64,000 nt of DNA. Source: Flectonema sp. DT1601. Taxonomy: Eukaryota. Position 1 is the stretch's first letter; each line of letters starts with the position of its first letter. Where the stretch lies: NCBI GenBank assembly GCA_964019425.1, contig OZ025790.1:1364001-1428000 (forward strand), in the 5' to 3' direction. Shown here piece by piece: positions 731 through 62,877 of the stretch. The notes under the pieces were generated by a model that was given only the letters and a program-made list of their open reading frames with translations, searched no databases and was not told the origin of the DNA. The position numbers were made by a program, and so were the translations under genes.

Positions 731-1701
731 AGTTGTTTTAATGTGATCCAAGACAGTTGGGGCATTTCTTGATTTACATTTGTGACGGCTAGATGGAGTG
801 GAGTGTAGCGAGGGAATAGCACTTTGCCACATACCAGCTGTTGGCTGTAAATGCAGGTTATCACGTTTCCTTTTTGTTTTAAAATTTTTATATCAATTTG
901 ACTTCACGGCAGTTTGTTTAGAACATGCGATTTTGTGTGGACGGAATCCAGTTATAATGATTCATGTCTAATTTGTTGAGTGTTAACCCTTGATTTATTT
1001 ATCCAAGTTCCCCCCCGCCGCTTCCTGGAGTTCGTTATAGTTTAGTTTTTTAGTTATTAATTTAAGTACTCATGAGTTTCATAAGAAAAAAACTGTTACT
1101 GGTAACATTGGCAGGTAGTGTTCAACTACTGTTCACGGCCTCCAGTGACATTATTTATTAAAAAGCATCTTCAATGATGCAATCGAGAGATTACCTTGTT
1201 CTTAATTACCCATTACAAGATGGGCTTTTCCGTTTTGGTTTTTTTTTTTTTTTTTTTTTCTCTCCATCTCGAAGACATGTTGCGTAACGTTACTTTTTAT
1301 AGTTCTGTTTTTTGATTGTCGCACAAAATGTGAGAATTTTTTTTTTTTTTTTTTTTTTGAATTTAATAAGTGTTGTAAGATCTAACAAGAACGTAAACGT
1401 CCTTGTTATCGGTTTGTTGTAAATCGGTTTCATGAACAAAACAAAACCCATGAACGAGTGTTATATGTTTTCTGTACGGTTTTGTAATTAGAGTTCAGTT
1501 CTTAAAAACTGTATTTATAAATACCATTGAGATATCAAAAATCTCCAAAAAAAAAAAAAAAAAAAAAATTGTGTTGTTTGTTTTGTATTATTTATTATTT
1601 ATTAGTTTTTTTTTTTTTTTTTGATTGATGTGACCTGGTTCTTTTTTTGTTTTCCAAGTCAACATTATCAAAAGGTTGTTGTTTTTAAACAAAATATATA
1701 T

Positions 1702-3469
1702 GAGGCGGTGCAGAAACCCCCCCCCCAATTTTTACCAGGCTATTCTGTGGGCACCTAATACCCAATCCGAGCTCACCACCCCACGAAAATACTATCCAAA
1801 AAACTCAAATCCGGTACTGGGGCATCCTCTAACTGCTCACCAGTTTCAAAATTCTATATTTTTTGACTGTTTCTGGTACTTTTGCCTTGTGTCTCTGTTG
1901 GTTGCCCTCAAAATACTCAAAAACCAGCTTAGCAGCTACATTGCAGAAATTTGTTTACACCTGGGTTCCTATGAAGACTGGAATGATAGGAACAGGAGAA
2001 GTGATGAGACAGGAGAATCATAGATCCCGTGAGAACTGCAGAGTACGATATCGGGTGGTGATTCTGAGTCACCCTTGCTGGCAGTGATGATTGAGCAATG
2101 TGAGCATGCTGTTCACAATAAGTACACCCTCAGGATTACTGGAGTTTTTCTAGAATCTATAGCCGCTTGAGGACGCTGCTACAAGCTCTATGTTCCAGTG
2201 GCTGGGGATAGCAGAAGTGAATAAGACTGGGATAGTAGTAGGAAAGGAATTGTGGAAGAATAGGGACAAGAAGGTGGAGTCAGTGGTTGCCTGTCAGTTG
2301 TAACACCTGACATGAAAAATCAGGTTCAATAAGAACTGGTAACCACTAGTGGTACCATAATATAAAACTCCTCCATGTATCAAAAAAAGGAGAGAGGCGG
2401 TTACTGTTGCTGTTGAAAACATGATGACCTCGTATCAACTAGTCGATAATAACTCCCCTCTAAAAGACACTATCTCATACACACAGTACTGTTCTCTACC
2501 TGGAGTTGAGTTCCAGCAGTTACGACGCTGTACGAATGTGTGCAACTACCGTCTCATTGACAAGAATCCATGAAAGAAGCTTACCTGCCCGGCATCTTCA
2601 GTATTCGCCACATGTATCTGTGATGTTGACAGACGTAATGGGTGGATCTCTGGGGCCTTCAACATCATCGTAACTTCCTTCTGGCGCTCATAAAGTCCGA
2701 AGCTGAGAAGCGAACAACAATGAGAGGAATTATTGAAATAGATTCTCACATTGGAGATAAGAGACATGTCAGGTGTATTGAGAAGATACATCTAATCCAT
2801 CCTGGTGACTATATCATGACTCTGGATTATAAAGAAAAGGGCTTCTAATGCCAGAAGGGACAAATTCCCCTTTCTATCAACAGGGGAAATAGTCTGCTTG
2901 GATGTGTACTACATGAGCAGTTTGGAACTGAGGTTCAGTGTGGCCATAACAACTTCCTACTCCCACACATCAACCAGAATGCGATAGTAACGTATCCGGT
3001 TATGAATAAGTTCTTCTTGATGTCTGAGAATGACAGGATGATTCACTATTGGGCTGATGCTGGTAGGCACCTTGAGAACACAACCGTCATCAGCCTGTTC
3101 TGTAAAATAAGTTAATCAGCTTGGGTTAACTTTTTCCCTAGTCGGCATGGCAAGTCCGAATGTGATCGACACTTTGGCAATATCACATCTGTGCTGACAC
3201 TCGAATCTAAATCGCAGGAAATCTGGGCCTTCAAGAAAAGCAAAATTTCAAACATAATTTCTACCAGTGCTACACAGCTTACAAGGCAAATGTTACTAGA
3301 AACAGTCAAAAAAGTGAAATTTTTAAACTGGTGGACAGTAAAAGGGTGCCCCAGTACCGGATTTGAGTTTTTTGGATACTATTTTCGTGGGGTGGTGGGC
3401 TCGGATTGGGTGTTAGGTGCCCACGGGATAGCCTGGTAAAAATTGGGGGGGGGGTTTCTGCACATCCTC
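1702..3469 (+). mobile_element. Decayed DNA transposon, Sola2-like, with ~190-bp terminal inverted repeats
   Basis: 1702-~1890 is the imperfect reverse complement of ~3280-3469; termini GAG...CTC; ATAT on both sides (1698-1701, 3470-3473); internal stop-interrupted frame with IMTLDYKEK (~2815) and IHYWADAGRH (~3041), resembling Sola2 DF(x)EN and IHYFSDG motifs. Confidence 0.75.
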
Positions 3470-3634
3470 ATATGTTTAAACCTTTGTTTACATAAGCGAG
3501 TCTATTGATACCTGTTTATTTGGTCAAATATCTGAGGACAAAAATCAATCTTTTTCAACAATAGGAATAAAAACCACCTTGAGAGAAACAACAAAAAAAA
3601 AACATGATATGATTTCCTCCATCATCGTTCCCAA

Positions 3635-23209: not shown

Positions 23210-24932
23210 TAAAAACAAAAAAAACAAAAATGAACAAAATGAAATTATTTCAGTCAGCTACAGAAATCCATCTCATTCGTAGAAGCAATTGCCATGCAAA
23301 TGCCGTGAAATGTCAATCGAGGCTTTTCTTCATAAAAAGATTCATCGTTCCTTCATTTGTAATCTTACAATAACAGAAAGAGGGAGAGAGACACATTTGT
23401 AGAAATATTGAGGTAATCAGGTGTTGGTAATTGAGATGTTATCAGTCATCATTTATATTTTATTTAGGTTTTTTTAGTCATCAAATTCTAAGGTAACCAC
23501 TATCTGAATTGTTTTGGGAAATTTTTTTTTTTTAATTTTTTTTTTTTTTTAAACTTGTCAGCAATCTGCAATCCACCCCATCATGTGATGAAGTGTACTG
23601 AGGCTCTCCCTTTTGTGACAACAACTCATCATGGCCAGATGTTCCAGATAGCAATCTGAAACTGTTTTGTGTTTGAATATTTAAGTACCTGGCTGTTGAC
23701 CGTTTTCACGCAGATTATCACCTTTTCCTTTTTCTCTCTCCTAGGTTTCTTCTTTTAGTAGTAAAATGTGCTACGTTAACATATCTCGAGTGGTGATTCA
23801 CGCTCAGCGTCGGAATCTAATTAAACTGTTTTTGAGTTGAATTATATCAAATTAAAGCAACTTCATATTAATACACATGTTTATTTACAGTCGTTTGCTG
23901 CGCTGCCGCTGACAGTTAAAATTATCCAAGAGATTGTCGTTCCTTTTGAGATTGATAATACGGTTATCAGTTTTACCCAACTCGTGTGTTTTTGAGTACG
24001 TAATAGCATTATTAGTATCTCTCTCTGAGCATTTTTGACGCTCAGCAAAGGAGGTCGTTTTTGTTGCTTTTGTTAGTTGTCATCCTTGAGAAGTTAATAT
24101 CCGTAACTGTTCAAAGGAAGTGTTTTACAGGAAATCACAACCACAGAATATGTTGCACTATTCAGGAATCGAAAGCTGCTTTTCAGGGTTTTCCTTATTA
24201 CTTTACGATTGTTGCCGCCGTTTTGAACACTTCAGCAATTTTAATAAATATTTTTTGTTTTTCAGTAGATTACTAAAAAAAAGAGAAACGAATAAAGCAA
24301 CAATGCAAGTTTTTGTGACGTGTCCGGATTTGGGATTCCCTGCGGTGTCAGTCACAGTTGGTGCTGATTCTGTTGTGAGCGACGTGTTGACGACAGCGGC
24401 TGACGAGTGGGATGTCGATGCGGATAAAGTTGAACTGTCGTTCGCTGGTGATGCCCTTTGCGAAAGTAAGCGGTTAGTAGATTATGGAGTGGGTGCAAAC
24501 AGCGAGTTGGAAATACGAAAGAAGCTGGTTCGGATCTTCTGTAAAAACTGGTTTGTTGATGATAGAAAAAGGGAGAAGCTGCTTCTTTGGATGAAAGACC
24601 ACATTACGGAGGATTTATGTCTGGACACTCCCACATTCTCAGAAGATGGTTGCCTCACTATTGACAAAGGGTTGCTTCCTTCAGATGCCAAACGGATTTC
24701 CTTCCGCTATTCAAATTCCAACAGCACGCAGGTCATTTCACAAGTTACTTCTATTGGAGATATAGGTGTTTACAAATCACTTCTCTTGACCTTTCCGGTC
24801 TTAGTGGTGTCACCAGTATTGGAAGTAATTTCTTGTATAAGTGTTTACACGTCACTTCTGTTGAGTTTTCAGGTCTTAGTGGTGTTTCTAGTATTGGAGA
24901 TCATTTCTTGTCTGAGTGTTCACAAATCACTT

Positions 24933-25005
24933 GGGTAACGAAACTCGGATAGCGCGCCTCCTCGTGGTGTTGCCTGGATGCACCTTGTGTGTAACTAGAG
25001 TGCTG
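24933..25005 (+). ncRNA. HDV-like self-cleaving ribozyme
   Basis: P1 GGGTAAC 24933-39 / GTTGCCT 24969-75 with G1-U wobble; P2 AGCGC 24951-55 / GTGCT 25000-04; P3 GCC/GGT; L3 TCCTCGT; P1.1 CC / GG 24976-77; P4 TGCAC/GTGTA; candidate catalytic C24995 in J4/2 CTAGA. Confidence 0.85.
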
Positions 25006-25626
25006 ACGTATTGTTGTTGCTGTGTATTCTTTTACCCCCGTTTTATTTTCCGGTAGCCTGACCTTTAAAAAAAAAGGACAACATAGCAGAAGGTCAGGTG
25101 ATCCGGCCCGGGATACTCAGGCACCCAGAGCTCACAGGGGCCACCGGGTTTTTATTTTTTCCTTAGTGGCATGATTTCCCTTTACCCCCATTTCCTTCAA
25201 ACTTCCCCCGTTTAGTCTTTTCACGCATGGGGGGATTATAAGTTCAGGTCGCCTGAAATGTATTAACAGTATCAGCCCCGCGAGTTACTCGGGGAGCTCC
25301 CATGCAATGTGTGGAGAAAGAGGCCATCCCTCCCCCTACCTCTCTGCTTTACTACGTCGTTTTTTGTGTGTGGCATTTCTTTTCTTATATTCTTTTCTTT
25401 TCAATCTTGTTCCTTCACACGCAGTTGTTCGAGCGGTTGTGAACCACCTTGGGTCTCTTACGGTCTCCAAGCTACTGTTGTGCGAAGAAACAAATCTGTT
25501 GGTGCGGTGGCCTTCCGACGCCACCTGGACCGCAACTCGTTCACAGTGCCCTACCCGGTTCTCCACCGGACCGCCTGAGCGACGGGATCCATGGGATTCA
25601 AACCCCTAAACACTGGTTAATTTAAT
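24933..25626 (+). mobile_element. Short non-autonomous non-LTR retroposon (SIDE/RIME-like) with a 5' HDV-like ribozyme
   Basis: Absent from the paralogous locus; flanked by AATCACTT (24925-32, 25635-42), extendable to TGTTCA(CA/AC)AATCACTT; starts at the ribozyme G+1; ends in a TTAATTTAAT tail; 3' boundary uncertain (25626-25634). Confidence 0.75.
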
Positions 25627-26356
25627 TGTTCAACAATCACTTCCGTTAACCTTTCAGGTCTTAGTAGTGTTTCCAGTTCAGTTATTAAAAGACTTTCTCG
25701 GAAGTTACAAAAAAGGAACTGTTACGGTGACGTAGTCAAGTGGAGCTCAATCGGGTGTTGTAATTGAGGGGATGTGAGCAATATTATCTCATGTCATTTA
25801 TTTATTTCTCTACTCAATAATGTCAAAGTTTGTTACTGTTTTTACATTAAGAAGATCGTCACATCAATGTTTTAGAAGCAGATGCTCTCGGGGGGGCAGA
25901 CGCTTAAGAAGATTGAGAGTAGCAGATCATCACTCCACTTGGGTAGATAATACCACAGTCTGTGATGCTTTTAGATAAAAGATGTGTGTTCGCTCACACA
26001 TTCTTATCAAGTGTTTACTGGTTGCCATTGACCACCTTTTATTTTTAAAGTGTTCCCATTCCCTGGCATGGGTAATCACAAAAGCTAAACCCTGCTGATG
26101 TCCCTTCCCGAGAGGAAGTCTCCAACAGAAAGAGGCAGACAGTTTAGATACTAAGTAGTGACCTTGATAGTTTTATAATGCGAGTTAATTTACATTTTCT
26201 TTCTTCTTTGTCAAATGGCTGCATTTTTGAATCGATTCTTGATTTTTCACTTATTTTTTTTTTTTTTTCAAATATTGTAAAGAGTCTTGAGAGAAAGTTT
26301 GGACCCCATTATTTTATTTAGGAAAATTCTCCGTTGCCTACATAAAAAAAGTTGGG

Positions 26357-27746
26357 AAAACCTCTAATTCCACGTAAATGTTACTGAAATGTCCGATTTC
26401 AACATGAAAGTTTCCGAAACGGACAGCTCCACACAAAAAAGTTTCCGAAATGGACAGCTCCACACAAAATAGTTTCCGAAATGGACAGCTCCACACACGA
26501 AAGTTTCCGAAATGGACAGCAAAAAAAAATTTTTTTTTTTTTGTTGGCAAAATGAATTTTTTTTTTTTTTTTTCTCCGTTGCCTGCACCCAAAAAAACTT
26601 TTCGCTAGTGAACAACTTTTTTTTTCCCGCATAAAATTGCTATGGTAGGTAATTTCATTTTCGCTGTTCAGTAAACGGAAAGGTTTTTCTTTCGCTATTC
26701 ACTGAAAGTAATATTCGGATTTTTCGCTGTTCGGTAAGAAAACAAGGTTTTTCTTCGTTCCCAAATACACCGGGATGGCCGAGATGGGTTGGTTCTCAAT
26801 GAGGGAAGGAGTAATTTAAGGTAAAGCAAGTGCTGTAATTACAACTAATACGTGCAGGGCCTGAATCAACCTCTTAGTACTCCCTTTTCAACAGGTGACA
26901 TAATAATATATACTAGTAGCTCGCTAATCAAGTGAAAGTTAGTAGCGGAGTAGTTCGGCTGATTGAATCTTTAGAAAAGTGTTCCGTGGGCTACTTTCAC
27001 AGAAACTCCGAAAGGACAGTACTGTGTGGCTCAGTGAGGTGATCTCAGACTTGAGAACACTAAATGGTTTCGCCACTCCACAGCTATTCATGTCAAGCCC
27101 TAGGCCGCTGATCATGTATACTTGGTTTTTGCGCTCTCATACCTCATCTTGGTTGGTACGACGTGTAGCGGAGACTTGTCTCTGCGTAGGTGACCCGGCC
27201 CTGCACACATACCGAGCTGTATCACTCTTCTAAAGATTCATGATGTTGGATTTCTCTTGTCTCCTATCTGACGCTTGTGATGCACCTCTAGTATTTTAAT
27301 ACACTCTGAACTCTCATGGTTGTATGAGCTGACAAGTCGGGTGTCTCTACCCGAAATTCGTCCATCCCTATACCTGGCCCTGCACACATACCGAGCTATG
27401 CCGATCCAGGGGCGCAGTCAGGCCTAGGCCCAGGTCACACAGGTTCGGTGTATTTCACTCATCTCGTCGGATGGCCTTGCCTTACGTAGGAAAAAAATTT
27501 TTTTTTGGGAGAAAAAAAAATCCCCATGACTTTGGGCGACCCCGAAATGCACTGGCAGTAAGCTATAAAAAAAAAAAAAACAGCTGTCCATTTCGGAAAC
27601 TTTCGTGTGTGGAGCTGTCCGTTTCGGAAACTTTTTTGTGTGGAGCTGTCCATTTCGGAAACTATTTTGTGTGGAGCTGTCCATTTCGGAAACTTTCATG
27701 TTGAGATCGGACATTTCAGAAACTTTTTTGTGGAATTATAGTTTTT
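26357..27746. mobile_element. Foldback-like structure with ~165-bp inverted arms built from ~31-bp subrepeats
   Basis: 26357-26520 (AGTTTCCGAAATGGACAGCTCCACAC x4) is the reverse complement of 27583-27746; no TSD or transposase identified. Confidence 0.6.
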
Positions 27747-28785
27747 CGCTGTTGGGTACCAGCACTTTTTTTTTTTCTGAAAAAAAAAAAAAAAAAAAAA
27801 GGTTATGACCACCGAAATGGCCCAAAATGCACCAAACCTGTGGGAACTGGGGCTCCTCTTACCCGGTTTCCCAACTTGTGACCAAGTATTACTCATACAC
27901 CCATGACCGTAACTTAAAATACAAGAGGTGCATCACAAGCGTCAGACAGAAGTCAAGAGAAATCATTCTCCTAAATTTACTCGAAAGTCGGGGCAATTCG
28001 AACGTCAGCATTCACATTAGCAAGCAACCAGTCCTGAGTACTTAAAGAACCCAATCATTACGTGTATAAGCCACAGTCACACTTAGTATAACGTTAGTAC
28101 AGAGGACACGGATCTGGATCTGCTATGCAGGGAAGTGACTTGAACTCGTTCAACTAATTAATGTGTGCAGATACAAGCGCCGCGAATTGACGGGTCTGAA
28201 GTTATGCTTTCCGAAGAGAGCAACCACCCACGCGAGTATTATTTTGACGCTATAACCTGTGACTTTCAACACATAACAACCAGGGATAATTCTCAGTTAG
28301 GCCGCCGTCACCGTGAAGCTGCTACGAACATAACCCAACAAACAAGCAATTCCTCCAACTTTGTTCATATGTGCAGACACATAGTCAGCTACACACTTGG
28401 AGATTTTCTTAATCTCTTTAAGCTACTATGTTTCCGGCCATCTTAGAGATTGAGAATAAGAGTTCGTAGTAAAAGAGTAAAAGACTGGAGAGAAAAACGT
28501 TTGTGATTAGGCACCTGAACGTTTTACTGAACGAATCATCGTAGGCGAATTAATTTCAGCTATTTGCAAGAACTACAACAAACATTCTACGAAGAACATC
28601 AAAAGAAGAACCTGGCAGCAACGAGCAAAAGCCATCCCCGGATGGCTGGTTCTCTTTAACCGTGCTGGGGGTAGCAAGTAAACAAAAACTCAACAGGGAA
28701 ATCCACCAGTATGTAGATCCCAGTTCTATGGACTACCCAACAATAGCCGCATTCATTTTAAACAAAGCTGGTGCACCGCAGTGTC

Positions 28786-28859
28786 CCCCTTGCTTTCTTC
28801 GCTGAAGAGGGCTGGGTAAGGGGAATGGTCCAAAGAAAGATTGTTTTTAATCTTATCCC
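28786..28859 (+). ncRNA. Decayed compact permuted hammerhead (family A), GAAA segment lost
   Basis: P0 CCCCTTG 28786-92 / TAAGGGG 28817-23; stem I CTTTCTTCG 28793-801 / CAAAGAAAG 28831-39 (1 mismatch); CTGAAGA 28802-08; stem II GGGCTGGG / CTTATCCC (1 mismatch); TGGTC site 28826-30. Confidence 0.6.
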
Positions 28860-29453: not shown

Positions 29454-30094
29454 CATGAGTGGAACCTTCTTATTTTTTTATAATTCATCCCCCCATGATA
29501 TATTTTATATAAGGGGACACCGCAGTGTCCCCCCTGCTTTCTTCGCTGAAGAGGGGCTGAGCATGAGTGGAACCTTGTTATTTTTTTATTATTCATCCCC
29601 CCATAAACATAACTCAGCCCCACTCATTTTGTTGGTATTCCGCGTTCACTGATATATTTTATATAAGGGGACACCGCAGTGTCCCCCCTGCTTTCTTCGC
29701 TGAAGAGGGCTGAGCATGAGTGGAACCTTGTTATTTTTTTATTATTCATCCCCCCATAAACATAACTCAGCCCCACTCATTTTGTTGGTATTCCGCGTTC
29801 ACTGATATATTTTATATAAGGGGACACCGCAGTGTCCCCCCTGCTTTCTTCGCTGAAGAGGGCTGAGCATGAGTGGAACCTTGTTATTTTTTTATTATTC
29901 ATCCCCCCATAAACATAACTCAGCCCCACTCATTTTGTTGGTATTCCGCGTTCACTGATATATTTATATAAGGGGACACCGCAGTGTCCCCCTTGCTTTC
30001 TTCGCTGAAGAGGGCTAACATGAGTGAAACCTTGTTATTTTTTTATTATTCATCCCCCCATAAACATAACTCAGCCCCACTCATTTTGTTGGTA
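29454..30094 (+). repeat. Tandem array of ~153-bp units (108, 153, 153, 151 bp and a partial unit)
   Basis: Units start CATGAGTG at 29454, 29562, 29715, 29868, 30019; each of the first four contains the hairpin GGGGACAC-CGCA-GTGTCCCC and CTTTCTTCG-CTGAAGA-GGGCT. Confidence 0.95.
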
Positions 30095-30099
30095 TACGT

Positions 30100-31418: not shown

Positions 31419-33056
31419 ATGCCTGACGCTGTGAGAGTAATTACCAGAATCCGACCGCTTCAAGAATCAGATGACTATCACTGTTGTGTTCCAGGTGTGT
31501 CTGGAAATAGCGTCATATTAAAAACATCTGATGGAGACCGAGAATACTCGAATGATATTGTTTTTGGTAGTTCTTCAGATCAAAGAGATGTTTTTGGATG
31601 CATAGGTCCAGACGTGATCGATTGTTTATTTGATGGAAGAAACGCATCCGTGATTGCCTACGGTCAAACTGGTAGTGGAAAGACTCATACTATGATAGGA
31701 AGTAAAAAGAATCCAGGAATCATTCCAAACCTTTTGAATAACATATTGGCAAATTGCACTGAGGGATGCTCAGTTCACATTAGAGCTGTTCAGGTTTATA
31801 ATGAACTGGTTTTGGATTTGTTTGACTGTGCTCCGTCAAACAAACGACTGCCTCTGAAGTTGAGGGAAGTGATGAAAGGAGTTTTTGTTCCGGAATCTGC
31901 GACTAGGAAGTTACTGTTACCGGGACAGGCTTTTGAAATTCTTTCGAAAACTTCTCAGAATAGAGAAGTGGCGAAGACTAACATGAATACGAACAGCAGT
32001 AGATCACACACCGTCTATATGATCGATTTGGCTCAAGAAGCACCTGAATTGTGTGGAGAATTAATATCGACGTTATATTTGGTTGACTTAGCTGGGTCTG
32101 AGAACGCTAATCGAAGTGGAGTTACAGGTCCACGTCTACAAGAGACTTCCAACATCAATCGGTCCTTAGCAGCTTTGAAAGGAGTAATGGGAGCACTTGC
32201 AGCAGGTGAAACCTTTACACCGTACAGAGATAGTGTTTTAACAAAGTTACTAAAAGATTGCATGGGTGGAAATGCAAAAACAACATTGCTGTGTTGTGTC
32301 TCTTCGTCGAAAGATGATGAAATTGAAACGAGAAGCACTCTCGAGTTTGGATTGTTGTCTCAGAAGGTAACCACGTTCGTTTCAAGAAATATTAGGAAAA
32401 GTTATCCTCAATTAAAAAACGAGATCGATCTAGTTCAGTCAATATTATTAAACCTGCGATCTGACATTTCCGTTTTAGAAAATAAATTACCCACCGAATG
32501 CAACACCATTCGAGGGATTCCTCGTACTTTTATATGTCCGCTGACTTCAGCATTGACACCTAACGTCACCGTTATGAAAGACCCGGTCATCGCCTCGAAC
32601 GGTAAGACGTATGAGTCGGAGGCTTTGAAGAGGAAATGGTTACGGAGTGACTCCAAGGGTGATATCAAACCAGTTGCAGGGATTTTGAATCTCCCTGATC
32701 CGGTCACCGATATGCTGTTTTTTAAAAATAAGAATTGTTGTTCTCAGATTGCTACCTGGAGAATAGAGAGACTTTGGCCTTCTGATGTCCTTCGTTTGGT
32801 ACTGGAATATTCAACACCTGAAATCACACTAGCTAGTAGATTAGTGTGTAGTACATGGGAAAGAGGAACCAAAGAAGAAGAGTTCTGGTCAACAATACTA
32901 CAGCGAGACTATCGTAATTACCCTCCACCATCCAATACTAAACTAGGTTGGAAGTCGTGGATGAGACAATATTTTCGCGCATGTGGATCCAGACCGAAGA
33001 GCTCCGCAGGAACAGGTCGCAGTACTGTTTTTGGTCTTCGATTGGCTGCTCCATAA
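31419..33056 (+). CDS. Kinesin motor domain fused to U-box and F-box-like domains
   Basis: AYGQTGSGKTHT, NTNSSRSH, LVDLAGSE, PYRDSVLTKLL (motor); PRTFICPLT...MKDPVIASNGKTYESEAL (U-box); WPSDVLRLVLEY...SRLVCSTW...EEFW (F-box). Confidence 0.9.
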   Translation: MPDAVRVITRIRPLQESDDYHCCVPGVSGNSVILKTSDGDREYSNDIVFGSSSDQRDVFGCIGPDVIDCLFDGRNASVIAYGQTGSGKTHTMIGSKKNPGIIPNLLNNILANCTEGCSVHIRAVQVYNELVLDLFDCAPSNKRLPLKLREVMKGVFVPESATRKLLLPGQAFEILSKTSQNREVAKTNMNTNSSRSHTVYMIDLAQEAPELCGELISTLYLVDLAGSENANRSGVTGPRLQETSNINRSLAALKGVMGALAAGETFTPYRDSVLTKLLKDCMGGNAKTTLLCCVSSSKDDEIETRSTLEFGLLSQKVTTFVSRNIRKSYPQLKNEIDLVQSILLNLRSDISVLENKLPTECNTIRGIPRTFICPLTSALTPNVTVMKDPVIASNGKTYESEALKRKWLRSDSKGDIKPVAGILNLPDPVTDMLFFKNKNCCSQIATWRIERLWPSDVLRLVLEYSTPEITLASRLVCSTWERGTKEEEFWSTILQRDYRNYPPPSNTKLGWKSWMRQYFRACGSRPKSSAGTGRSTVFGLRLAAP

Positions 33057-33074
33057 AGCAGTAGTTGTTAAGAT

Positions 33075-33244
33075 TGCCTAGATAGGACGAAGCCGAGGGA
33101 AGCCATTGCGGTGTTGACGTGCAAATCGCTCGTCAAAGCTGGGTATAGGGGCGAAAGACCCATCGAACCATCTAGTAGCTGGTTCACTCCGAAGTTTCCC
33201 TCAGGATAGCTGGAACCATAAAAGGAGTTACGCCTAATGATTAC
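33075..33244 (+). rRNA. Isolated, internally deleted fragment of cytosolic LSU rRNA (pseudogene)
   Basis: TGACGTGCAAATCG...TGGGTATAGGGGCGAAAGACCCATCGAACCATCTAGTAGCTGGTTC...CCGAAGTTTCCCTCAGGATAGCTGG is conserved eukaryotic 28S sequence; no other rDNA nearby. Confidence 0.9.
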
Positions 33245-44235: not shown

Positions 44236-45225
44236 ATGGTTTGGACTTCAGACCCGGCAGCATATTCTAAAATAATATTGCATTCAATAAGGTATCCTTC
44301 TCAGAGTGTGTCAGGGTTCCTTATTGGAGAGAGCGTTAAGAAAGACGGAGAATCAGTTCTTCACATTTCAGATGTGTTACCACTTTGCCATACCAACGTT
44401 CAGCTCTTACCAAATGCAGAAGTAGGATTTTCCGTTGCGAAGGCAGTTGCTAAGGAGAAGAAGATGAGAGTTGTATGTTTTTTTTTTATTTTGCATTTAA
44501 CAAGTATTGTAAGAACGAAAAAAAGAATGTTGGGCAGCACACGTAAACTTCCTGTAGCTTTATCAGTTTAAAGTCGGTTTGCGGGTTTTCGTGACACAAA
44601 CAAAGCATCAACAAGTGTTATATTGCTATTTTCTGTATGGTATAAGATAAAGCCAATTCTTTTTTTTTTTTTTTTTTTAATCCAACATCACAAACACAGA
44701 TTGGGTACTACTACGCTCCTCAACTCCTTGAAGAGCGGACCACCAGCATGACTCCTTTCGCTGAGAAGATTATGAAAATGTTTGTGTTTTTTATTTCGTT
44801 TTTTGGTTCAAACAAAAACAAAATAATTCACTGTGTTTTCCTAAGAGTGACAACGAAAGAAATTTTCCATTTTATCTTCCCCGAAAAAAACAAAAAAAAA
44901 AAATAAAAAAAAAATTAGGATCACTGACGGAGCTGGAAAACAATCCACGATGGCAATTCAAATAGTAAACAACCGAGTCAGTGTATCCGGAAAAGAATGC
45001 CCACTGAAGTTCTTTGATGGAAACGATTTAAAGGGTGGAAGAACCAACGAATCTGGTTGCTTCAAATTATTCAGCAAAGGCGAAGAAATACAATACTCCT
45101 CTTTCGCTCCTATTCTAGAGAGTCACATAAAGAAGGGATTGGTGTCAAAATTGATCGACTTTGAAGCGCATTTGGATAATCCGAAATTAGACTTTACTAA
45201 CGACAGCATTAATAAAGTTTTTTAA
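44236..45225 (+). CDS. EMC8: ER membrane complex subunit EMC8/9 (UPF0172), exons 44236-44472, 44700-44779, 44919-45225
   Basis: AYSKIILHSIRYP...VSGFLIG...DVLPLCH, IGYYYA, LIDFEAHLDN...N motifs; two introns restore the frame. Confidence 0.85.
44493..44660 (+). repeat. Dispersed ~170-bp repeat, here intronic; other copies at 48067-48229 and 62451-62542, diverged copies near 190-300 and 1365-1480
   Basis: TTAACAAGTATTGTAAGAACGAAAAAGAATGTTGGGCAGCACACGTAAAC...AGCTTTATCAGTTTAAAGTCGGTT shared by the three main copies. Confidence 0.85.
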
Positions 45226-47067: not shown

Positions 47068-48959
47068 GATTGTTTTTTGAGTCGCCTCAAACGAAACTCC
47101 CTTTTTACTAACTAATGTTTATGTTGACATCTTGATAGTGTCCAAGTCTCTGCTGTTTTCGGCGAACACTTGTGTGACGCTTCACCTGTCTTACTGGCCA
47201 CGTGACTTCTTTCTTCATTTCTCCCCCTGTTTTCTTTGATTAACAACTACAAATATTTTCTCAGTCGGGTACTTGATATTAATTTTGTTTCTTAATACCA
47301 AAGTCAAAGTTTCACCCCCTTCTTCTTTCTTGAAAGACTAAAATGGAAACCTATAGTTGTTATTCCTCATGTTGATCGCTTGTGGGCTGGGCTGCGAAGC
47401 CGAATTTTCTTTTCTTTTTTTGTTGTTTCCACCACAACACGGTTTTATAAGGAGGTTAATAATCTATTTTTTTTTTTTTTTTTTCTCCTTCCTCCTGTGC
47501 AGTTATCTCCTTGTTAGGGATCGCCAAGTTTTTTTTTTTTTTTTTTTTAGGGAAAAAGGAAGTTTCTGAATTCGAATGTTTAAAAGCGTTTATTCAACAA
47601 AACCCCACGAACACTTAGACGTAAATACTTTTTGTTCGCATTGAGACGACGTGAAGGACGTTGCAAGTATTGTTTGATGGGCAGTGAATGCGTTTTTTTT
47701 TCTTTTTCTGTTTCTTTTCTTTTTTTCTTATTTTTTTTGAATAGGGAATTTTCGTGTTCAGTAATACTGTCGCGATCAACAAAAAAAAAGGCTTTTTATC
47801 TGAATAGTTTTTTCCTATGGGATCCGTTTTTTTTTTCCTCTTTTTTTGCAAACGTCTACGATGAGAACTGGTGGGCTCTACCTTTGCAAAAAACGTCTGG
47901 TTATTTATTTTGAGACTTTTTTATCTTTTTTTTTCTTCTTGTGAAGTGTGTTGTATTGGGGGACAATTAAAAATATAAAAAGGGTGGTTTTTTTTTTTTA
48001 TTCTTAATGAGGTAGATTTAATCGTGGTTTTTTTTTCTTCTTTTTGTTTATTTTTTTTATTATTTTGCATTTAACAAGTATTGTAAGAACGAAAAAGAAT
48101 GTTGGGCAGCACACGTAAACCTCCTTTAGCTTTATCAGTTTAAAGTCGGTTCACGAGTTTCGTGACACAAACAAAAAATCACAGTTGTCATATTATTATT
48201 TTCTGTATAGTCGAAGATAAAGCCAATTCTTTTTTTTTTTTTTTGGGAATTCCTGCTTGGCAAAAAAAAAAAAAAATATAAACGAAATAAAATAAAATAA
48301 AATAAAGCAATTATCAACTGTTGAGATCTAAGAAGGAAAAAAAACCTTTTATCCCCCAACTCTGCTGTCCCATACCAAACCAATACGAGGATTTCTTTTT
48401 TGTGTTTGTTTTAAGTTACTTCTTGTCTTCTTAATGTTCTCCTTTACTGTAAAACTTTGTTCTTTTTTTTTTCAAAGTTTCGGGGAGATAATTTTTTTTT
48501 TTTTTTTTTGTTCTTCCAACAATAAGTTTTTTTTTTTTTTTTTTGTACCCACAAAAAACCTATTGTTCGGTTGAAAGAGCAACTGACTCTATATTAATAT
48601 TAACTGTTGCGTGCCAACAAAAAGTGTGTTGTTGAATAAAAAAAAAATATCATTTCATTTCATTTCATTTCTTTTAATTTTTTTTTTGCACCGACACAAA
48701 AAGTCGGAGAAGAAACTATTCAGATTAAGAGCCGTTTTATTTATTATATCAAAATTTTATCTATTTTTTCCCCTGAACTTTTTCATGTATTTCTGTCCGC
48801 GATCAACAAAAAAAAAAAAAATGACTGGTGTTGACCTGCATATAAAAGTAGACCCCCCTGAGCCAGTTAACCCTTAAGGCTGCTGCTGTTTCTTATTTTA
48901 TTTTATATGTTTTTTTTAAATCTCAGTAACAAAAATATAGCAAAAAAAGAAAAAAAAAA

Positions 48960-51751: not shown

Positions 51752-52895
51752 TGTTATATTTACACACATTTTTCACTTGATTTTGTTTGAGTGTAATATG
51801 ATCAAGATTACATTTCCCCCCGACAGCACATATGGCAATTTTTCAGCACGTAGGTGAAACCTACACTCTGTCATTGAATAACTCGATTACTGAATGACAA
51901 CACAGATGTGTATGCAGCTAAGTTAGAAACATTTACTGTAACCATAAATAACACGGTGTATAAAAAATTTGGAGTATAACAACTTTGGATATAATAAAGA
52001 TGGTGGATTTGGCCATTTTTTGGCGATTTGGAGACTTTTTATACGCCATGATATTTATAGTTACAGTATTATAATGTTAAGTATTTACATCAATTACAGA
52101 GTGTTTACCAATACTAACATTACCTTAGTCACACACATAAGCGTGAATTGAATAGCCCAAAAAAGGACAACATATCCACAAATAACGTTGTTTAGCTGGT
52201 TGCACACCAGTCTCTAGAGATGGCTGTTGATGCAGTCTAAACGAGAACTAGGGAGTTCCCTTCTCCAATCTTTGTAACAGCCTAGCCATACTTAACTTCA
52301 GTTACAGTTGGCAATTCAAGTTTTGGGTTCTTTATCATAAGCTGTTCTTGCACACAAAAAACCAGCCATGATAGCATTTTTGTAATGCTACTATCCACGC
52401 TTCAAAAGCTCCAACAAGTCCCAGCAAGTCTAACTGAGTATCATGTTCATCATGTCAAGTTCGAATCCCGGTGAAGGCTATAAGTGACTCTCTTTTAGTG
52501 ATAGGCAGCCCCCTGAACGAAGCTGTGAGGGAGTTTTAGAGATTAAGACTGTACTCTACACAGGATCTGTTTTTGAGTACATTCGTGTTGGAGTTTACAT
52601 AACCCAGCACAGGCCAAAGCTGGATGATGACGTAGACCAGCACTGTGCCGCATGAGCATTGCGATGATTGCATACGATGCGTCAAGTTTCACCTTGACAA
52701 GCACAGTCTGGTCACTTACAGCTTTTTTAATAATCAGGTGGGTCTTCCTTTGAAAGTTGACTTTTCAAATTTTATGATTTGAATTAAAATAAAGTAAATT
52801 ACTCGTCCAGTTCGATTCCCCGTGAAGTATAGTTTTCTTCCTAGAATAAAGGATCCGACGTCTGCGGGGTAAGTGAAGTTGTCCTTTTCAAGTTC

Positions 52896-53085
52896 ATACC
52901 TTCTCGGCCTTTTGGCTAAGATCAAGTGTAGTATCTGTTCTTATCAGCTTAATATCTGATATGACACCTTGTGTGTCAACGATATTATAGTAATTTCTTG
53001 TTGGGGTGTCGGGTAGCTTGGGGCAACTCAGGTCCGGCACAAGTGTTGCCCTGGAGCTGCACCACATCCAGGAGTGGCACACCCA
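52896..53085 (+). ncRNA. U2: U2 spliceosomal snRNA
   Basis: ATACCTTCTCGGCCTTTTGGCTAAGATCAAGTGTAGTATCTGTTCTTATCAG 5' end; stems IIa/IIb; Sm-like AATTTCTTG; 3' stem-loop CCTGGA-GCTGCACCACA-TCCAGG; followed by TTTTT. Confidence 0.95.
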
Positions 53086-53456
53086 TTTTTAATTAAAGTA
53101 GAAGACAAAGTCTCTTTTGAAATTTGAGAAGTTTCAGCACCGTGAAGAAGAAAAATCTCTTCTTCACATAGTACTGAATGCTGTGTTTCCCAATTAATTG
53201 TGAGGGAAATTTCCCAGATTTGGTTCCGTTGGAGTCACAATGAATGTGATTCGACGCAACTGTTGATCGAGAGTTCTGGTCAGTCGTTCTCTCGAGTTCT
53301 GATCAATCTACTGCACTATTCAAGAATCGAAAGCTGCTTTTCAGTTTTTCCTTATTACTTTACGATTGTTGCCGCCGTTTTGAACACTTCAGCAATTTTA
53401 ATAAATATTTTTGTCTTTCAGTAGATTACTAAAAAAAAGAAGCAAATAAAACAACA

Positions 53457-54599
53457 ATGCAAGTTTTTGTGACGTGTCCGGATTTAGGACTCCCTGCGGT
53501 GTCAGTCACAGTTGGTGCTGATTCTGTTGTGAGCGACGTGTTGACGACAGCGGCTGACGAGTGGGATGTCGATGCGGATGAAGTTGAACTGTCGTTCGCT
53601 GGTGATGCCCTTTGCGAAAATGAGCGGTTAGTAGATTATGGAGTGGGTGCAAACAGCGAGTTGGAAATGCGGAAGAAGCTGGTTCGGATCTTCGGTAAAA
53701 ACTGGTTTGTTGATGATAGAAAAAGGGAGAAGCTGCTTCTTTGGATGAAAGACCACATTACGGAGGATTTATGTCTGGACACTCCCACATTCTCAGAAGA
53801 TGGTTGCCTCACTATAGACAAAGGGTTGCTTCCTTCAGATGCCAAACGGATTTCCTTCCGCTATTCAAACTCCAACAGCAAGGTCATCTCACAAGTTGCT
53901 TTTATTGGAGATAATTTCTTGTCTCGTTGTTCACAAATAAGTTTTGTTGACCTTTCCGGTCTTAATAGTGTTTCTAGTATTGGACATGATTTTTTGGCTC
54001 TCTGTTTACACATCACTTCTGTTGACCTTTCCGGTCTTAGTGGTGTCACCAGTATTGGAAGTAGCTTTTTAGCTCACTGTATACAAATAAGTTTTATTGA
54101 CCTTTCAGGTCTTAGTAGTGTCACCAGTATTGGAAGTGATTTTTTGTCTAATTGTTCACACATCACTTCTCTTGACTTTTCAGGTCTTAGTAGTGTCACC
54201 AGTATTGGGAATTATTTTTTGTATTGTTCACATATCACTTCTCTTGACCTTTCCGGTCTTAGTGGTGTCACCAGTATTGGAAATACTTTTTTAGCTAACT
54301 GTAAACAAATTAATTTTGTTAGCCTTTCAGGTCTTAGTGGTGTCACCAGTATTGGAAATCATTTCTTGTCTAAGTCTTCAGAAATCACTTCACTTGACCT
54401 TTCGGGTCTTAGTAGTGTCACCAGTATTGGAGATGATTTTTTGTTTCGTTGTTCAAGAATCACTTCTCTTGACCTTTCCGGTCTTAGTAGTGTTTCCAGT
54501 TCAGTTATTAAAAGAAGTACTTGGGAGTTACAAAAAAAAACTGTTACGGTGACACAGTCAAGTGGAGCTCAATCGGGTGTTGTAATTGAGGGGATGTGA
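53457..54599 (+). CDS. Ubiquitin-like N-terminal domain + BspA-type leucine-rich repeats
   Basis: About eight ~24-aa repeats LSGLSSVTSIGxxFLxxCxxITSLD; N-terminal LSFAGDAL...LVDYGV UBL-like pattern. Confidence 0.85.
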   Translation: MQVFVTCPDLGLPAVSVTVGADSVVSDVLTTAADEWDVDADEVELSFAGDALCENERLVDYGVGANSELEMRKKLVRIFGKNWFVDDRKREKLLLWMKDHITEDLCLDTPTFSEDGCLTIDKGLLPSDAKRISFRYSNSNSKVISQVAFIGDNFLSRCSQISFVDLSGLNSVSSIGHDFLALCLHITSVDLSGLSGVTSIGSSFLAHCIQISFIDLSGLSSVTSIGSDFLSNCSHITSLDFSGLSSVTSIGNYFLYCSHITSLDLSGLSGVTSIGNTFLANCKQINFVSLSGLSGVTSIGNHFLSKSSEITSLDLSGLSSVTSIGDDFLFRCSRITSLDLSGLSSVSSSVIKRSTWELQKKTVTVTQSSGAQSGVVIEGM

Positions 54600-55242
54600 G
54601 CAATATTATCTCATGTCATTTATTTATTTCTCTACTCAATAATGTCAAAGTTTATTTCTGTTTTTACATTAAGAAGATCGTCACATCAATGTTTTAGAAG
54701 CAGATGCTCTCGGGGGGCAGACGCTTAAGAAGATTGAGAGGAGCAGATCATCACTCCACTTGGGTAGATAATACCACAGTCTGTGATGCTTTTAGATAAA
54801 AGATGTGTGTTCGCTCACACATTCTTATCAAGTGTTTACTGGTTGCCATTGACTACCTTTTATTTTTAAAGTGTTCCCATTCCCTGACATGGGTAATCAC
54901 AAAAGCTAAACCCTGCTGATGTCCCTTCCCGAGAGGAAGTCTCCAACAGAAAGAGGCAGACAGTTTAGATACTACGAAGTAGTGACCTCGATAGTTTTAT
55001 AATGCGAGTTAACTTACTTATATTTTCTCTCTTCTTTGCCAGGTGCATACAACGATAGAATGCTAATTATTATTTTTTTTTAATTAGAGATTTCATGCAC
55101 CAGTTAATATGAATTTCCTTTTGAAATTTGGGTTTGCATTTAAGAAAGAAGGCTGACAAAGGAAAGAGAGTTTTAATGCGACGAGTTATCACTTCTGTTC
55201 GTCCAGTTAGATTTCTACCTGGTTTTCTTCCTTTTCAAGTTC

Positions 55243-55347
55243 ATACCTTCTCGGCCTTTTGGCTAAGATCAAGTGTAGTATCTGTTCTTATCAGCTTAAT
55301 ATCTGATATGACACCTTGTGTGTCATATCAGATATTATAGTAATTTC
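55243..55347 (+). pseudogene. 3'-truncated U2 snRNA copy
   Basis: Identical to U2 for the first ~83 nt, ends within the Sm site; upstream flank partly shared with that of the full gene. Confidence 0.9.
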
Positions 55348-55727
55348 ATAAGTCTTACTTTGCAACAGGTATTGTCGAGTGAGGAAAGTATCAATTAACG
55401 TCACTGTAACAGATGCAAAGATGATTAGGTCGATTCAAAAAAATGTATGTCGTTCGGGCACAGCAGGTCACTATGTCTGTTTTCCTTAGAAAAATATTGC
55501 AGGGACTCAACGTTCAATCAGTCCTGCGCGTACGTTCTAACGCAAAAGGGATGTTATCGCTGCTCCACACATTACAATTTAACGACTCATGGCCTCTAAT
55601 AATGTAAAAAAAAAAAGTAGCCCTGCTTCTTTCACCTTTTGATGTTATTATTGTTTTTAAAGTTTTTAGGTTTATTTATTTATTTATTTTATATTTTTTT
55701 AAATTCGTATAAAACAGGCACAAAAAG

Positions 55728-61480: not shown

Positions 61481-62877
61481 TTTTTTTTTTTTGTTTCTCT
61501 TTTAAAATCGAAACGCTCAAGCGATCCTTTGCGGTATGTAATTTCCCTGCGTCCTAACAAGGCACTTTGTTTATTTAGTTTTTTTTTTTTTTATAACATT
61601 CTGCTGTTGTTGTTTGAATTTATTATATTTAAGCGATGACATAATTATTTTCAATGTAGTGGACTTTTTATTTTTATTTTTACTTATCTTTTTTTTTTTT
61701 TTTTTTATTATAACGTCACACAAAAAAAAATAAAAAAATAAAACACAAATCTCAGCACTCTCATTTTTGTTTTAATTCTCGCGTTTCATTTTTTAATATT
61801 TTTTATTATAAAATAAATAATCCATACTTGTTTACATTTGATACTAATTCAACAATCCATGCTGAGTCTTCGGATAGCCACGGATTAGGTACTCTGTTAC
61901 TGTGAGTTACCCTCCTTAGAGCACTCATAATATACAGTAACGTTTTGGATTATATAACTGACTAAGTTGCAATGTGTTTTTATATTTTTCTTTTTTTTTT
62001 ATATTTTAATTTAGCCCTCAAAAGTATAACTACATTTGGTACCTTTTTTAAATTAAGAAGGTTAAACGCGATGAGTAGGACAGAGGTTTGGAAAAAATAT
62101 TTATATTAATTGATGTCACGTAGTCTCCTGCTGCTGTACTTGGACAAGGTGGAAAGTTATCTCTTGATGTAGTATGCCCCCCCCACTGTGCTGAAACTAA
62201 TAAAATAATCCTCTACGGGATTACGTTCATCTTCCTATCGCAGTATTGTAGACCTCTTTGAGTAGTCTACCAATACTACGGGTGGTCTGATGGACTTGCT
62301 AACTAGTTATTTATTAATTTTGTAATGACTTCTCTAAAATGTCAACCGAAAAACGGAATGTGACTTCTGCTTGTTTTGATTGGCATCTTGTCACACTCAT
62401 ATAGTCTTTCCTCCGGGTTTCGGTGGCGTCTTTTTTTTTTTTTTTTTTTTGCACTTAACAAGTATTGTAAGAACGAAAAAAGAATGTTGGGCAGCACACG
62501 TAAACCTCCTTTAGCTTTATCAGTTTAAAGTCGGTTCACGAGGTGCACAAGCAACAGATCCCTCCTCAATCCATACCACCCCCAAAAAAAAGAAAAAAAA
62601 AAAAACGATCGCTGTATTTTATTGTCTTAATCTTGTACCCCCCCATATTTGGTATTTTTTTTCCCCATCGGATGTGATGTGTGTTAATTATTATTTTTGT
62701 TCCTTCCCTCAGCATCTTCGACAGCACGTATGGGACTTTAGCAACTGTTCTCTCTTTTCATTGTAACTAAGTTTGGCCGAACCCTATATTCCGGTTTAAG
62801 TTACTTTATATTTCATCGCGATATCAAATAGATTATAATGTCTCCCCCCGCAGTTAAATTCCCCCCCTCAATGCTCA

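Follow-up and report, generated by a model that had tools for sequence, protein, structure and literature searches.

A probable non-autonomous retroposon headed by a predicted HDV-like ribozyme and likely targeted to LRR coding repeats in a marine diplonemid

Non-LTR elements headed by an HDV-like ribozyme are well known, and taken alone the ribozyme described here adds a member from a new lineage. Trypanosomatids and animals have the closest described systems. The NARTc, RIME and SIDER elements of the L1Tc-ingi group in trypanosomatids are short and non-coding, and they reside in Euglenozoan hosts with polycistronic transcription (PMC4035085, PMC3185411, PMC12278014, in the parts cited here); the element of this study shares these traits. 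As in their Pr77 region, it begins with an HDV-like ribozyme whose predicted cut site is at the first base of the element (PMC4035085, text cited). The R2 SIDEs, as well as the R2/R1 hybrid SIDEs, likewise are non-autonomous and site-specific, carry a 5' HDV-like ribozyme and are freed from a host co-transcript (PMC3414825, PMC3774820, in the sections cited), and the diplonemid element resembles them in these points, its cleavage being predicted. Repeated insertion at one site of a protein-coding multigene family, accompanied by pseudogenes and recombination, is a feature that it has in common with ingi/RIME in RHS genes and TcTREZO in MASP genes (PMC7563717, PMC5814959, passages cited). In the portions of the literature surveyed, site-specific elements aim at rDNA, at spliced-leader genes, or at one RHS or MASP site.

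According to the text cited for Diplonema, its transposable elements have so far been without a rigorous catalogue, TATE-like and DNA transposon ORFs are present, and there are clusters of genes that are likely co-transcribed (PMC10161547). Here, we analyzed one window, that is, a whole stretch of 64,000 nucleotides. It is eukaryotic DNA, with U2 and U3 RNA genes and an Fcf1 gene, and the host of the element is a marine diplonemid protist. The product of this Fcf1 gene is closest to a EukProt protein labelled Flectonema neradi (99% identity, 83% of the query covered), followed by four matches at 72-80% from Diplonema, Rhynchopus, Namystynia and Artemidia, which places the host among the diplonemids, near F. 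neradi. The long genes with Pfam matches are on the + strand, the same as the element, so the element is co-oriented with the gene cluster, as the first-pass annotation of this DNA had proposed. Parts of the region were also present in two public runs, X1 and X2 (the latter a marine metatranscriptome), and in two gene calls, P0122 on a 421-kb and P0123 on a 20-kb ENA contig; the gene call that matches the Fcf1 of the window is on an ENA contig of 410 kb. The element, its host gene and the paralog of the host gene are arranged as follows.

24303-24932, + strand: 5' part of the host pseudogene, with a ubiquitin-like domain and BspA LRR, aligned to the paralog
24914-24932, + strand: left 19-nt target register, from the codon before Cys to the T after Ile-Thr
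24933-25623, + strand: retroposon-like non-autonomous element of ~690 bp
25611-25623, + strand: 3' end motif and short T run, present in the window, at the loose end of X1 at 25623, and in P0122 and P0123 as read back from protein
25624-25642, + strand: right 19-nt target register, differing from the left one at 4 of 19 positions
25624-26213, + strand: 3' part of the host gene (last LRR unit, C-terminal tail and 3' flank), 94.8% identical to 54449-55041
53457-54599, + strand: intact paralog without insertion, an ORF with a ubiquitin-like domain and 8 BspA-type LRR units (Pfam LRR_5, E 6e-29)

The 5' part of the host gene is 97.6% identical to the paralog, and Pfam matched Rad60-SLD and LRR_5 in it, both under the curated cut-off. 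The host gene also has a 10-nt deletion of its own near 24761, upstream of the insertion. The paralog had been put forward as an insertion-free comparison. It does lack the insertion, but with 8 LRR units, against 4 in the host gene, and without the 10-nt deletion of the latter, it is not an exact empty site. No empty allele of the insertion site was found in the sequences compared.

The rest of the window contains other repeats and RNA genes. An element at 26356-27747, ~140 bp past the duplicated LRR-gene block, has terminal inverted repeats of 165-190 nt built of 31-nt units; a second inverted pair of 51 nt (27249-27299/27914-27964) overlaps it, and Pfam was blank in the two frames tested. 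Another element (1698-3473), with inverted ends of 166-194 nt, gave no Pfam match and contains a short ORF (3116-3439) with an HGK..CD motif, which we take to be transposase-like. Each unit of a 153-nt tandem repeat at 29496-30095 (3.9 copies, 98% identical, with a partial copy near 28775-28815) has a GC-rich hairpin and then CTGA 12 nt later, which resembles a Helitron 3' end. There is also a dispersed ~200-nt repeat in three copies (44471-44674, 48044-48244, 62431-62560) with 89-95% identity. The U3 gene (52545-52724, below the gathering score) and the U2 gene (52896-53087) are located upstream of the intact LRR paralog; behind this paralog there is another copy of U2, whose 3' half is diverged (55243-55437). 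A gene at 31419-33056 joins a kinesin motor with a U-box, and also with a weak F-box-like domain, and an isolated 116-nt LSU rRNA fragment (33063-33178) lies directly after the kinesin gene stop codon; scattered 28S pieces are reported for Diplonema in the text cited (PMC10161547).

The limits of the element were determined from the LRR sequence around it. Since the LRR sequence ceases to match the paralog after 24932, and matches it again from about 25624-25626, we place the element at about 24933-25623. The exact 5' end at G24933, which had been proposed before, is the same in an X1 contig with an identical 5' junction. The proposed 3' end at 25642 has to be moved to near 25623, in a short T run, and lies at 25620-25623 according to how the T run is assigned. 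Copies running 5' of G24933 as parts of LTRs had been named as the observation that would speak against this 5' end; the one other 5' junction that we could inspect enters LRR sequence and not an LTR. No second copy of the element was found in the window, and both ends of the element are seen together only in the window copy.

The target-site duplication that had been named was not confirmed as a clean one. The exact match covers 8 nt only, and the 4 mismatches between the two 19-nt sides are all inside two variable codons of the LRR repeat. The 8-nt match is not diagnostic, because 3 of 28 ordinary unit pairs of the paralog likewise share an exact end of at least 8 nt. Across the same 28 pairs, the register differs at 2-9 positions (mean 5.8). 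At a divergence of 2-6%, the probability of at least 4 changes in 19 is 0.0005-0.024. From these sequence comparisons, a derivation of the flanks from two separate LRR units is more likely than the decay of a single duplication.

We then have four 3' junctions (window, X1, P0122 and P0123) and two 5' junctions (window and X1), two of the 3' junctions being read from gene calls without DNA. The two 5' junctions are at one register, and all four 3' junctions are located just before an LRR Cys codon. The distance from the end motif to this codon is 4 nt in the window, 5 nt in X1, 6 nt in P0122 and 10 nt in P0123. In X1, a contig matches 25568-25623 exactly and then enters another LRR unit. P0122 and P0123 came from a protein search with an element-only query (2 matches among 43 candidates), and a second protein search gave 1 match among 4 candidates, which was P0123 again. 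Both read through the 3' half of the element and then into LRR, and each is identical at 104 of 105 residues, across a 1-nt shift. P0122 enters the LRR in frame (Pfam LRR_5), whereas P0123 enters it in a shifted frame that matches the units of the window. Thus the earlier suggestion of a family with several copies holds, with further copies in X1, X2, P0122 and P0123.

The three outside 3' junctions all lead into LRR, and the coding DNA of LRRs accounts for 1.3% of the window. If these three were independent, the chance that they land within 10 of 75 bases of one register would be about 0.002, and it is their independence that we infer. In the intact LRR units, the 9 nt that precede the register are rich in T, and some of the tail Ts could derive from the target. 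The most unusual feature of the element, which the first reading of this locus had missed, is its apparently repeated insertion at the same LRR register, together with a T tail of variable length.

The same distribution could be produced without any target preference, if a single ancestral insertion in an LRR gene had been spread by duplication and gene conversion while the T run slipped. The gene family is indeed duplicating, as the near identity of the two paralogs in their 5' parts indicates; the left and right flanks resemble two different LRR units, which points to recombination, and all flanks seen are LRR. However, the window and P0122 share 104 of 105 element residues, yet in its LRR flank P0122 agrees with the window at only 8 of 23 residues (with the paralog, 72 of 122 agree). 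Next to the 3' junction, X1 has other bases than the window, and P0122 and P0123 have flanking residues that differ, although conversion should carry the bases near the junction along. We consider this explanation unlikely. Since near-identical elements are found in diverged LRR genes, each with its own junction, separate insertions are the best explanation.

The features inside the element are as follows.

24933-25005, + strand: HDV-like ribozyme fold (P1, P1.1, P2, P3 and P4), with a predicted cut 5' of G24933, recognized from a descriptor match, null controls and outside variants
24994-24999, + strand: J4/2 (CUAGA), with the predicted catalytic C24995, then G24998-A24999 (purine-A) before P2
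25050-25106, + strand: stable hairpin behind the ribozyme, with an 11-bp stem
25379-25424, + strand: pyrimidine tract ending in CAG

A complete nested double pseudoknot starting at G24933 had been described from the letters of this DNA, and we found all HDV-like parts at that place. P1 has 7 pairs (24933-39/24969-75) and begins with the G1.U pair G24933.U24975. J1/2 has 10 nt and is followed by P2 with 6 pairs (24950-55/25000-05) and P3 with 3 pairs (24956-58/24966-68, closed by C-G). L3 is the 7-nt UCCUCGU, in which U, CC and CG are in their conserved places (U24959, C24963 and G24964). P1.1 consists of two C-G pairs (C24960-61/G24976-77), and P4 has 5 pairs (24979-83/24989-93). The fixed positions of the published HDV descriptor are all present, namely G1-Y, two P1.1 C-G pairs, the L3 U..CG and the catalytic C (PMC6326823, as given in the text cited). 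In the L1TcRz ribozyme of the trypanosomatid group, P1.1 has a single pair in the description cited, in contrast to two in the diplonemid element. J4/2 is one base longer than usual, in agreement with the first reading of this locus: it has 5 nt from the C, against 4 in the CRRA descriptor, and it is unchanged in the X2 copy.

When both strands were searched, this was the only descriptor match in the window. No match occurred in resampled windows, either with the strict descriptor (0 of 60) or with a looser one (0 of 25). When the descriptor was relaxed much further, matches appeared in 10 of 300 resampled windows, or in 2 of 300 if P2 had to be at least 6 bp. An HDV family was reported by Rfam neither for the window (E up to 1) nor for the region alone (E up to 10). 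The folding z-scores were not unusual for the whole element (-0.39), the ribozyme (0.02) or the 3' part (-0.41 and 0.00); programs without pseudoknots see only part of the ribozyme fold.

Variants of the ribozyme were obtained from the two public runs. One 314-nt contig of X2 spans 24939-25247, showing no flank, with 8 other letters and 5 gap letters. G24972A, found in both X1 and X2, changes the U.G pair of P1 into U-A. In X2, a 2-nt insertion after 24982 together with T24988A lengthens P4 from 5 to 7 bp (paired by hand). The homologs, which are only two outside copies, thus show one one-sided change in P1 and a pairing-consistent extension of P4, without a two-sided compensatory change in P1-P3. 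The X1 contigs have a depth of about 2. The X1 5' contig leads out of LRR sequence and passes into the element, without an indel, at the same junction as the window copy; it has 7 differing letters, 5 of which are unplaced and may adjoin the junction. Stretches of 157, 252 and 56 nt inside the element are free of other letters in X1, the one of 252 nt having 1 gap. The start of the X2 contig, 6 nt past the predicted cut, was considered as a sign of cleavage or expression and rejected, because there is a single contig from a single study, a start does not follow from a contig, and the library may contain DNA.

We regard the modelled fold at 24933-25005 as real and its cleavage as a prediction. 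In two-dimensional folding without pseudoknots, P1 is present in the minimum-energy fold of the isolated 73 nt, and its probability is 0.27-0.44 with 0-20 nt of the native upstream flank. With 30-60 nt of this flank, the 5' strand of P1 is instead paired in a rival hairpin, and the probability falls to 0.00. Judged from these models, the window copy may be a weak cutter.

This would accord with a retroposon whose ribozyme fold is inactive or unimportant, with the RNA's 5' end coming from an internal promoter or from splicing. The extra J4/2 base, the four wobbles in P1 and P2 and the rival hairpin in the native flank could all be signs of inactivity, and an 11-nt deletion from 24989 takes the catalytic C out of the X1 copy. 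In the text cited, the Pr77 of L1Tc doubles as a promoter, and its cleavage was reduced by upstream flanks (PMC3185411). For splicing, there is the acceptor-like site at 25424. However, neither the window copy nor the X2 copy has lost any catalytic-core position, and pairing is preserved by the changes in X2. When 10 other LRR units were used as the left flank in the two-dimensional fold, the mean P1 probability was 0.47-0.76 for 6 of them and at most 0.21 for 4. Moreover, an elongated J4/2 does not prevent activity in theta ribozyme 0046, an HDV-like ribozyme which was active in vitro and was the fastest of the four theta ribozymes tested (PMC10879173, text cited). An inactive or unimportant fold is quite unlikely in our judgment.

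Theta ribozyme 0046 is described in that text as a minimal phage ribozyme beside a tRNA, with the extra base at the last J4/2 position (PMC10879173). Unlike this, the extra base in the diplonemid CUAGA is probably best read next to the bulged position. An Rfam scan gave no tRNA. A core pattern with CTAGA occurred at 15 viral loci, none of which had a perfect P1, so that no second ribozyme with such a J4/2 was obtained from them.

Behind the ribozyme, the fold of 25040-25150 around the stable hairpin has a z-score of -2.84, and 2 of 200 shuffles were as good. The tract at 25379-25424 is a possible trans- or cis-splice acceptor, and 26 of the 1635 YAG sites in the window are as pyrimidine-rich. 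We rejected the idea that the element is removed as an intron, with a GT near 24935 as donor and the AG at 25424 as acceptor, for this would leave a stop within few codons.

The 3' part (25430-25609) had been suggested to be a remnant of the parent LINE, and we found no protein evidence for it with Pfam, Atlas or phmmer. Pfam matched none of the nine frames scanned; there are 15 stop-free frames of at least 30 aa, and the six outside the scan are 30-46 aa long. For two frames, the best Atlas scores were 0.77 and 0.83, below the useful level (under 0.9). The 144-aa frame, one of three + frames, was compared with 1.84 billion proteins by phmmer and gave 3 matches without RT or endonuclease families, that is, the element copy in P0123 and two weak repeat-inflated proteins. 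The word-index protein searches likewise covered one of the three + frames. This 3' part may be a non-coding LINE 3' UTR. P0124, a gene call on an ENA contig of 244 kb, has six tandem 54-aa units weakly like the translated sequence at ~25256-25324 (10 of 23 residues identical), by chance or as a related repeat.

DNA pattern scans for copies of the element gave none in metagenome contigs, prokaryote genomes or viral contigs. Blastn gave none in plasmids and one 36-nt match (E 0.2) in phages. No autonomous partner LINE was found in these sequences or in the protein searches. At 25429-25468, nine of ten X2 contigs fit in part and, among those listed, seven match only 35-37 nt here. These seven have 2-5 other letters and unrelated flanks; plasmid blastn and the viral pattern scan were blank for this segment.

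The element might instead belong to another class than the non-LTR retroposons, as a solo LTR, as part of a tyrosine-recombinase element, or as a DNA transposon. It has neither a poly(A) tail nor a clean target-site duplication, and Diplonema has the TATE-like and DNA transposon ORFs mentioned above (PMC10161547, in the part cited). Against this, terminal inverted or direct repeats of the element were not found, and a fixed 5' end at the ribozyme with variable 3' spacing fits reverse transcription of an RNA. We judge such a class assignment highly improbable.

The explanation that we favor, and hold with fair confidence, is that the element is a young, multi-copy, non-coding, T-tailed and non-autonomous non-LTR retroposon, headed by an HDV-like ribozyme fold and likely targeted to BspA-type LRR coding repeats. 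Its mobility may be pictured by analogy with L1Tc/NARTc (PMC4035085, PMC3185411) and the R2 SIDEs (PMC3414825, PMC3774820), as far as the cited sections describe them. Host polycistronic transcription would pass through the element, and the ribozyme would cut before G24933 to give an RNA with a defined 5' end, freed from the host transcript. The protein of a partner LINE would nick the bottom strand behind the T-rich stretch, immediately in front of the Cys codon of the LRR. The RNA would then be copied from its U-rich 3' end by target-primed reverse transcription, and about 19 nt would be duplicated. The 4 mismatches of the window copy would arise because its flanks come from two different LRR units, either by recombination between element-bearing units or by a staggered 5' join in another unit. 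Recombination at the insertion site is described for RHS pseudogenes in the text cited (PMC7563717).

Compared with the systems introduced at the beginning, the element would work like NARTc/RIME and the R2 SIDEs, and we file it under neither, as it has no poly(A) tail and no rDNA target. Members of the ingi clade have a poly(A) tail (PMC12278014, part cited), whereas the diplonemid element has a short T run. The R2 SIDEs are targeted to 28S rDNA in animals according to the passages cited, while the diplonemid flanks seen are all LRR coding DNA. The RHS and MASP targets differ from the diplonemid target, which is a repeated unit of an LRR array, and the diplonemid element is T-tailed. One gene can therefore offer several targets, because the site is a repeated unit of the array. 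For TcTREZO, no ribozyme is described in the text cited (PMC7563717, PMC5814959).

EhSINE1 and EhLINE1 of Entamoeba have in common with the diplonemid element a T-rich 3' tail, T-rich DNA before the insertion point and a duplication of ~20 bp (22 bp at the site shown in a figure) (PMC1635306, in the part cited). However, the same text describes EhSINE1 as being without targeted insertion and not found in genes, and the likeness to the diplonemid element is by description (PMC1635306). As a lead, the T tail, the T-rich DNA before the site and the ~19-nt duplication, which recall EhSINE1, would point to a restriction-like-endonuclease partner.

A further-reaching version of this explanation, which we put forward tentatively and at somewhat below an even chance, is that the family has the LRR-array unit as its fixed target and is driven by an undescribed site-specific diplonemid LINE. 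Because every LRR unit would be a target, the copies would serve as recombination points that delete or shuffle units in an expanding ubiquitin-like/BspA-LRR family.

We found no report of HDV-like retroposon ribozymes in diplonemids, nor of non-LTR elements targeting LRR, in the literature covered, which mostly did not extend to subscription papers. The LRR targeting is the more interesting part of this finding than the ribozyme. If it is true, there would be an endonuclease that recognizes a coding motif of a protein repeat. Among natural HDV-like ribozymes, this one would offer a case of a 5-nt J4/2 and could be assayed simply. For the diplonemid host, the element would be a natural mutagen and a source of recombination for its LRR families.
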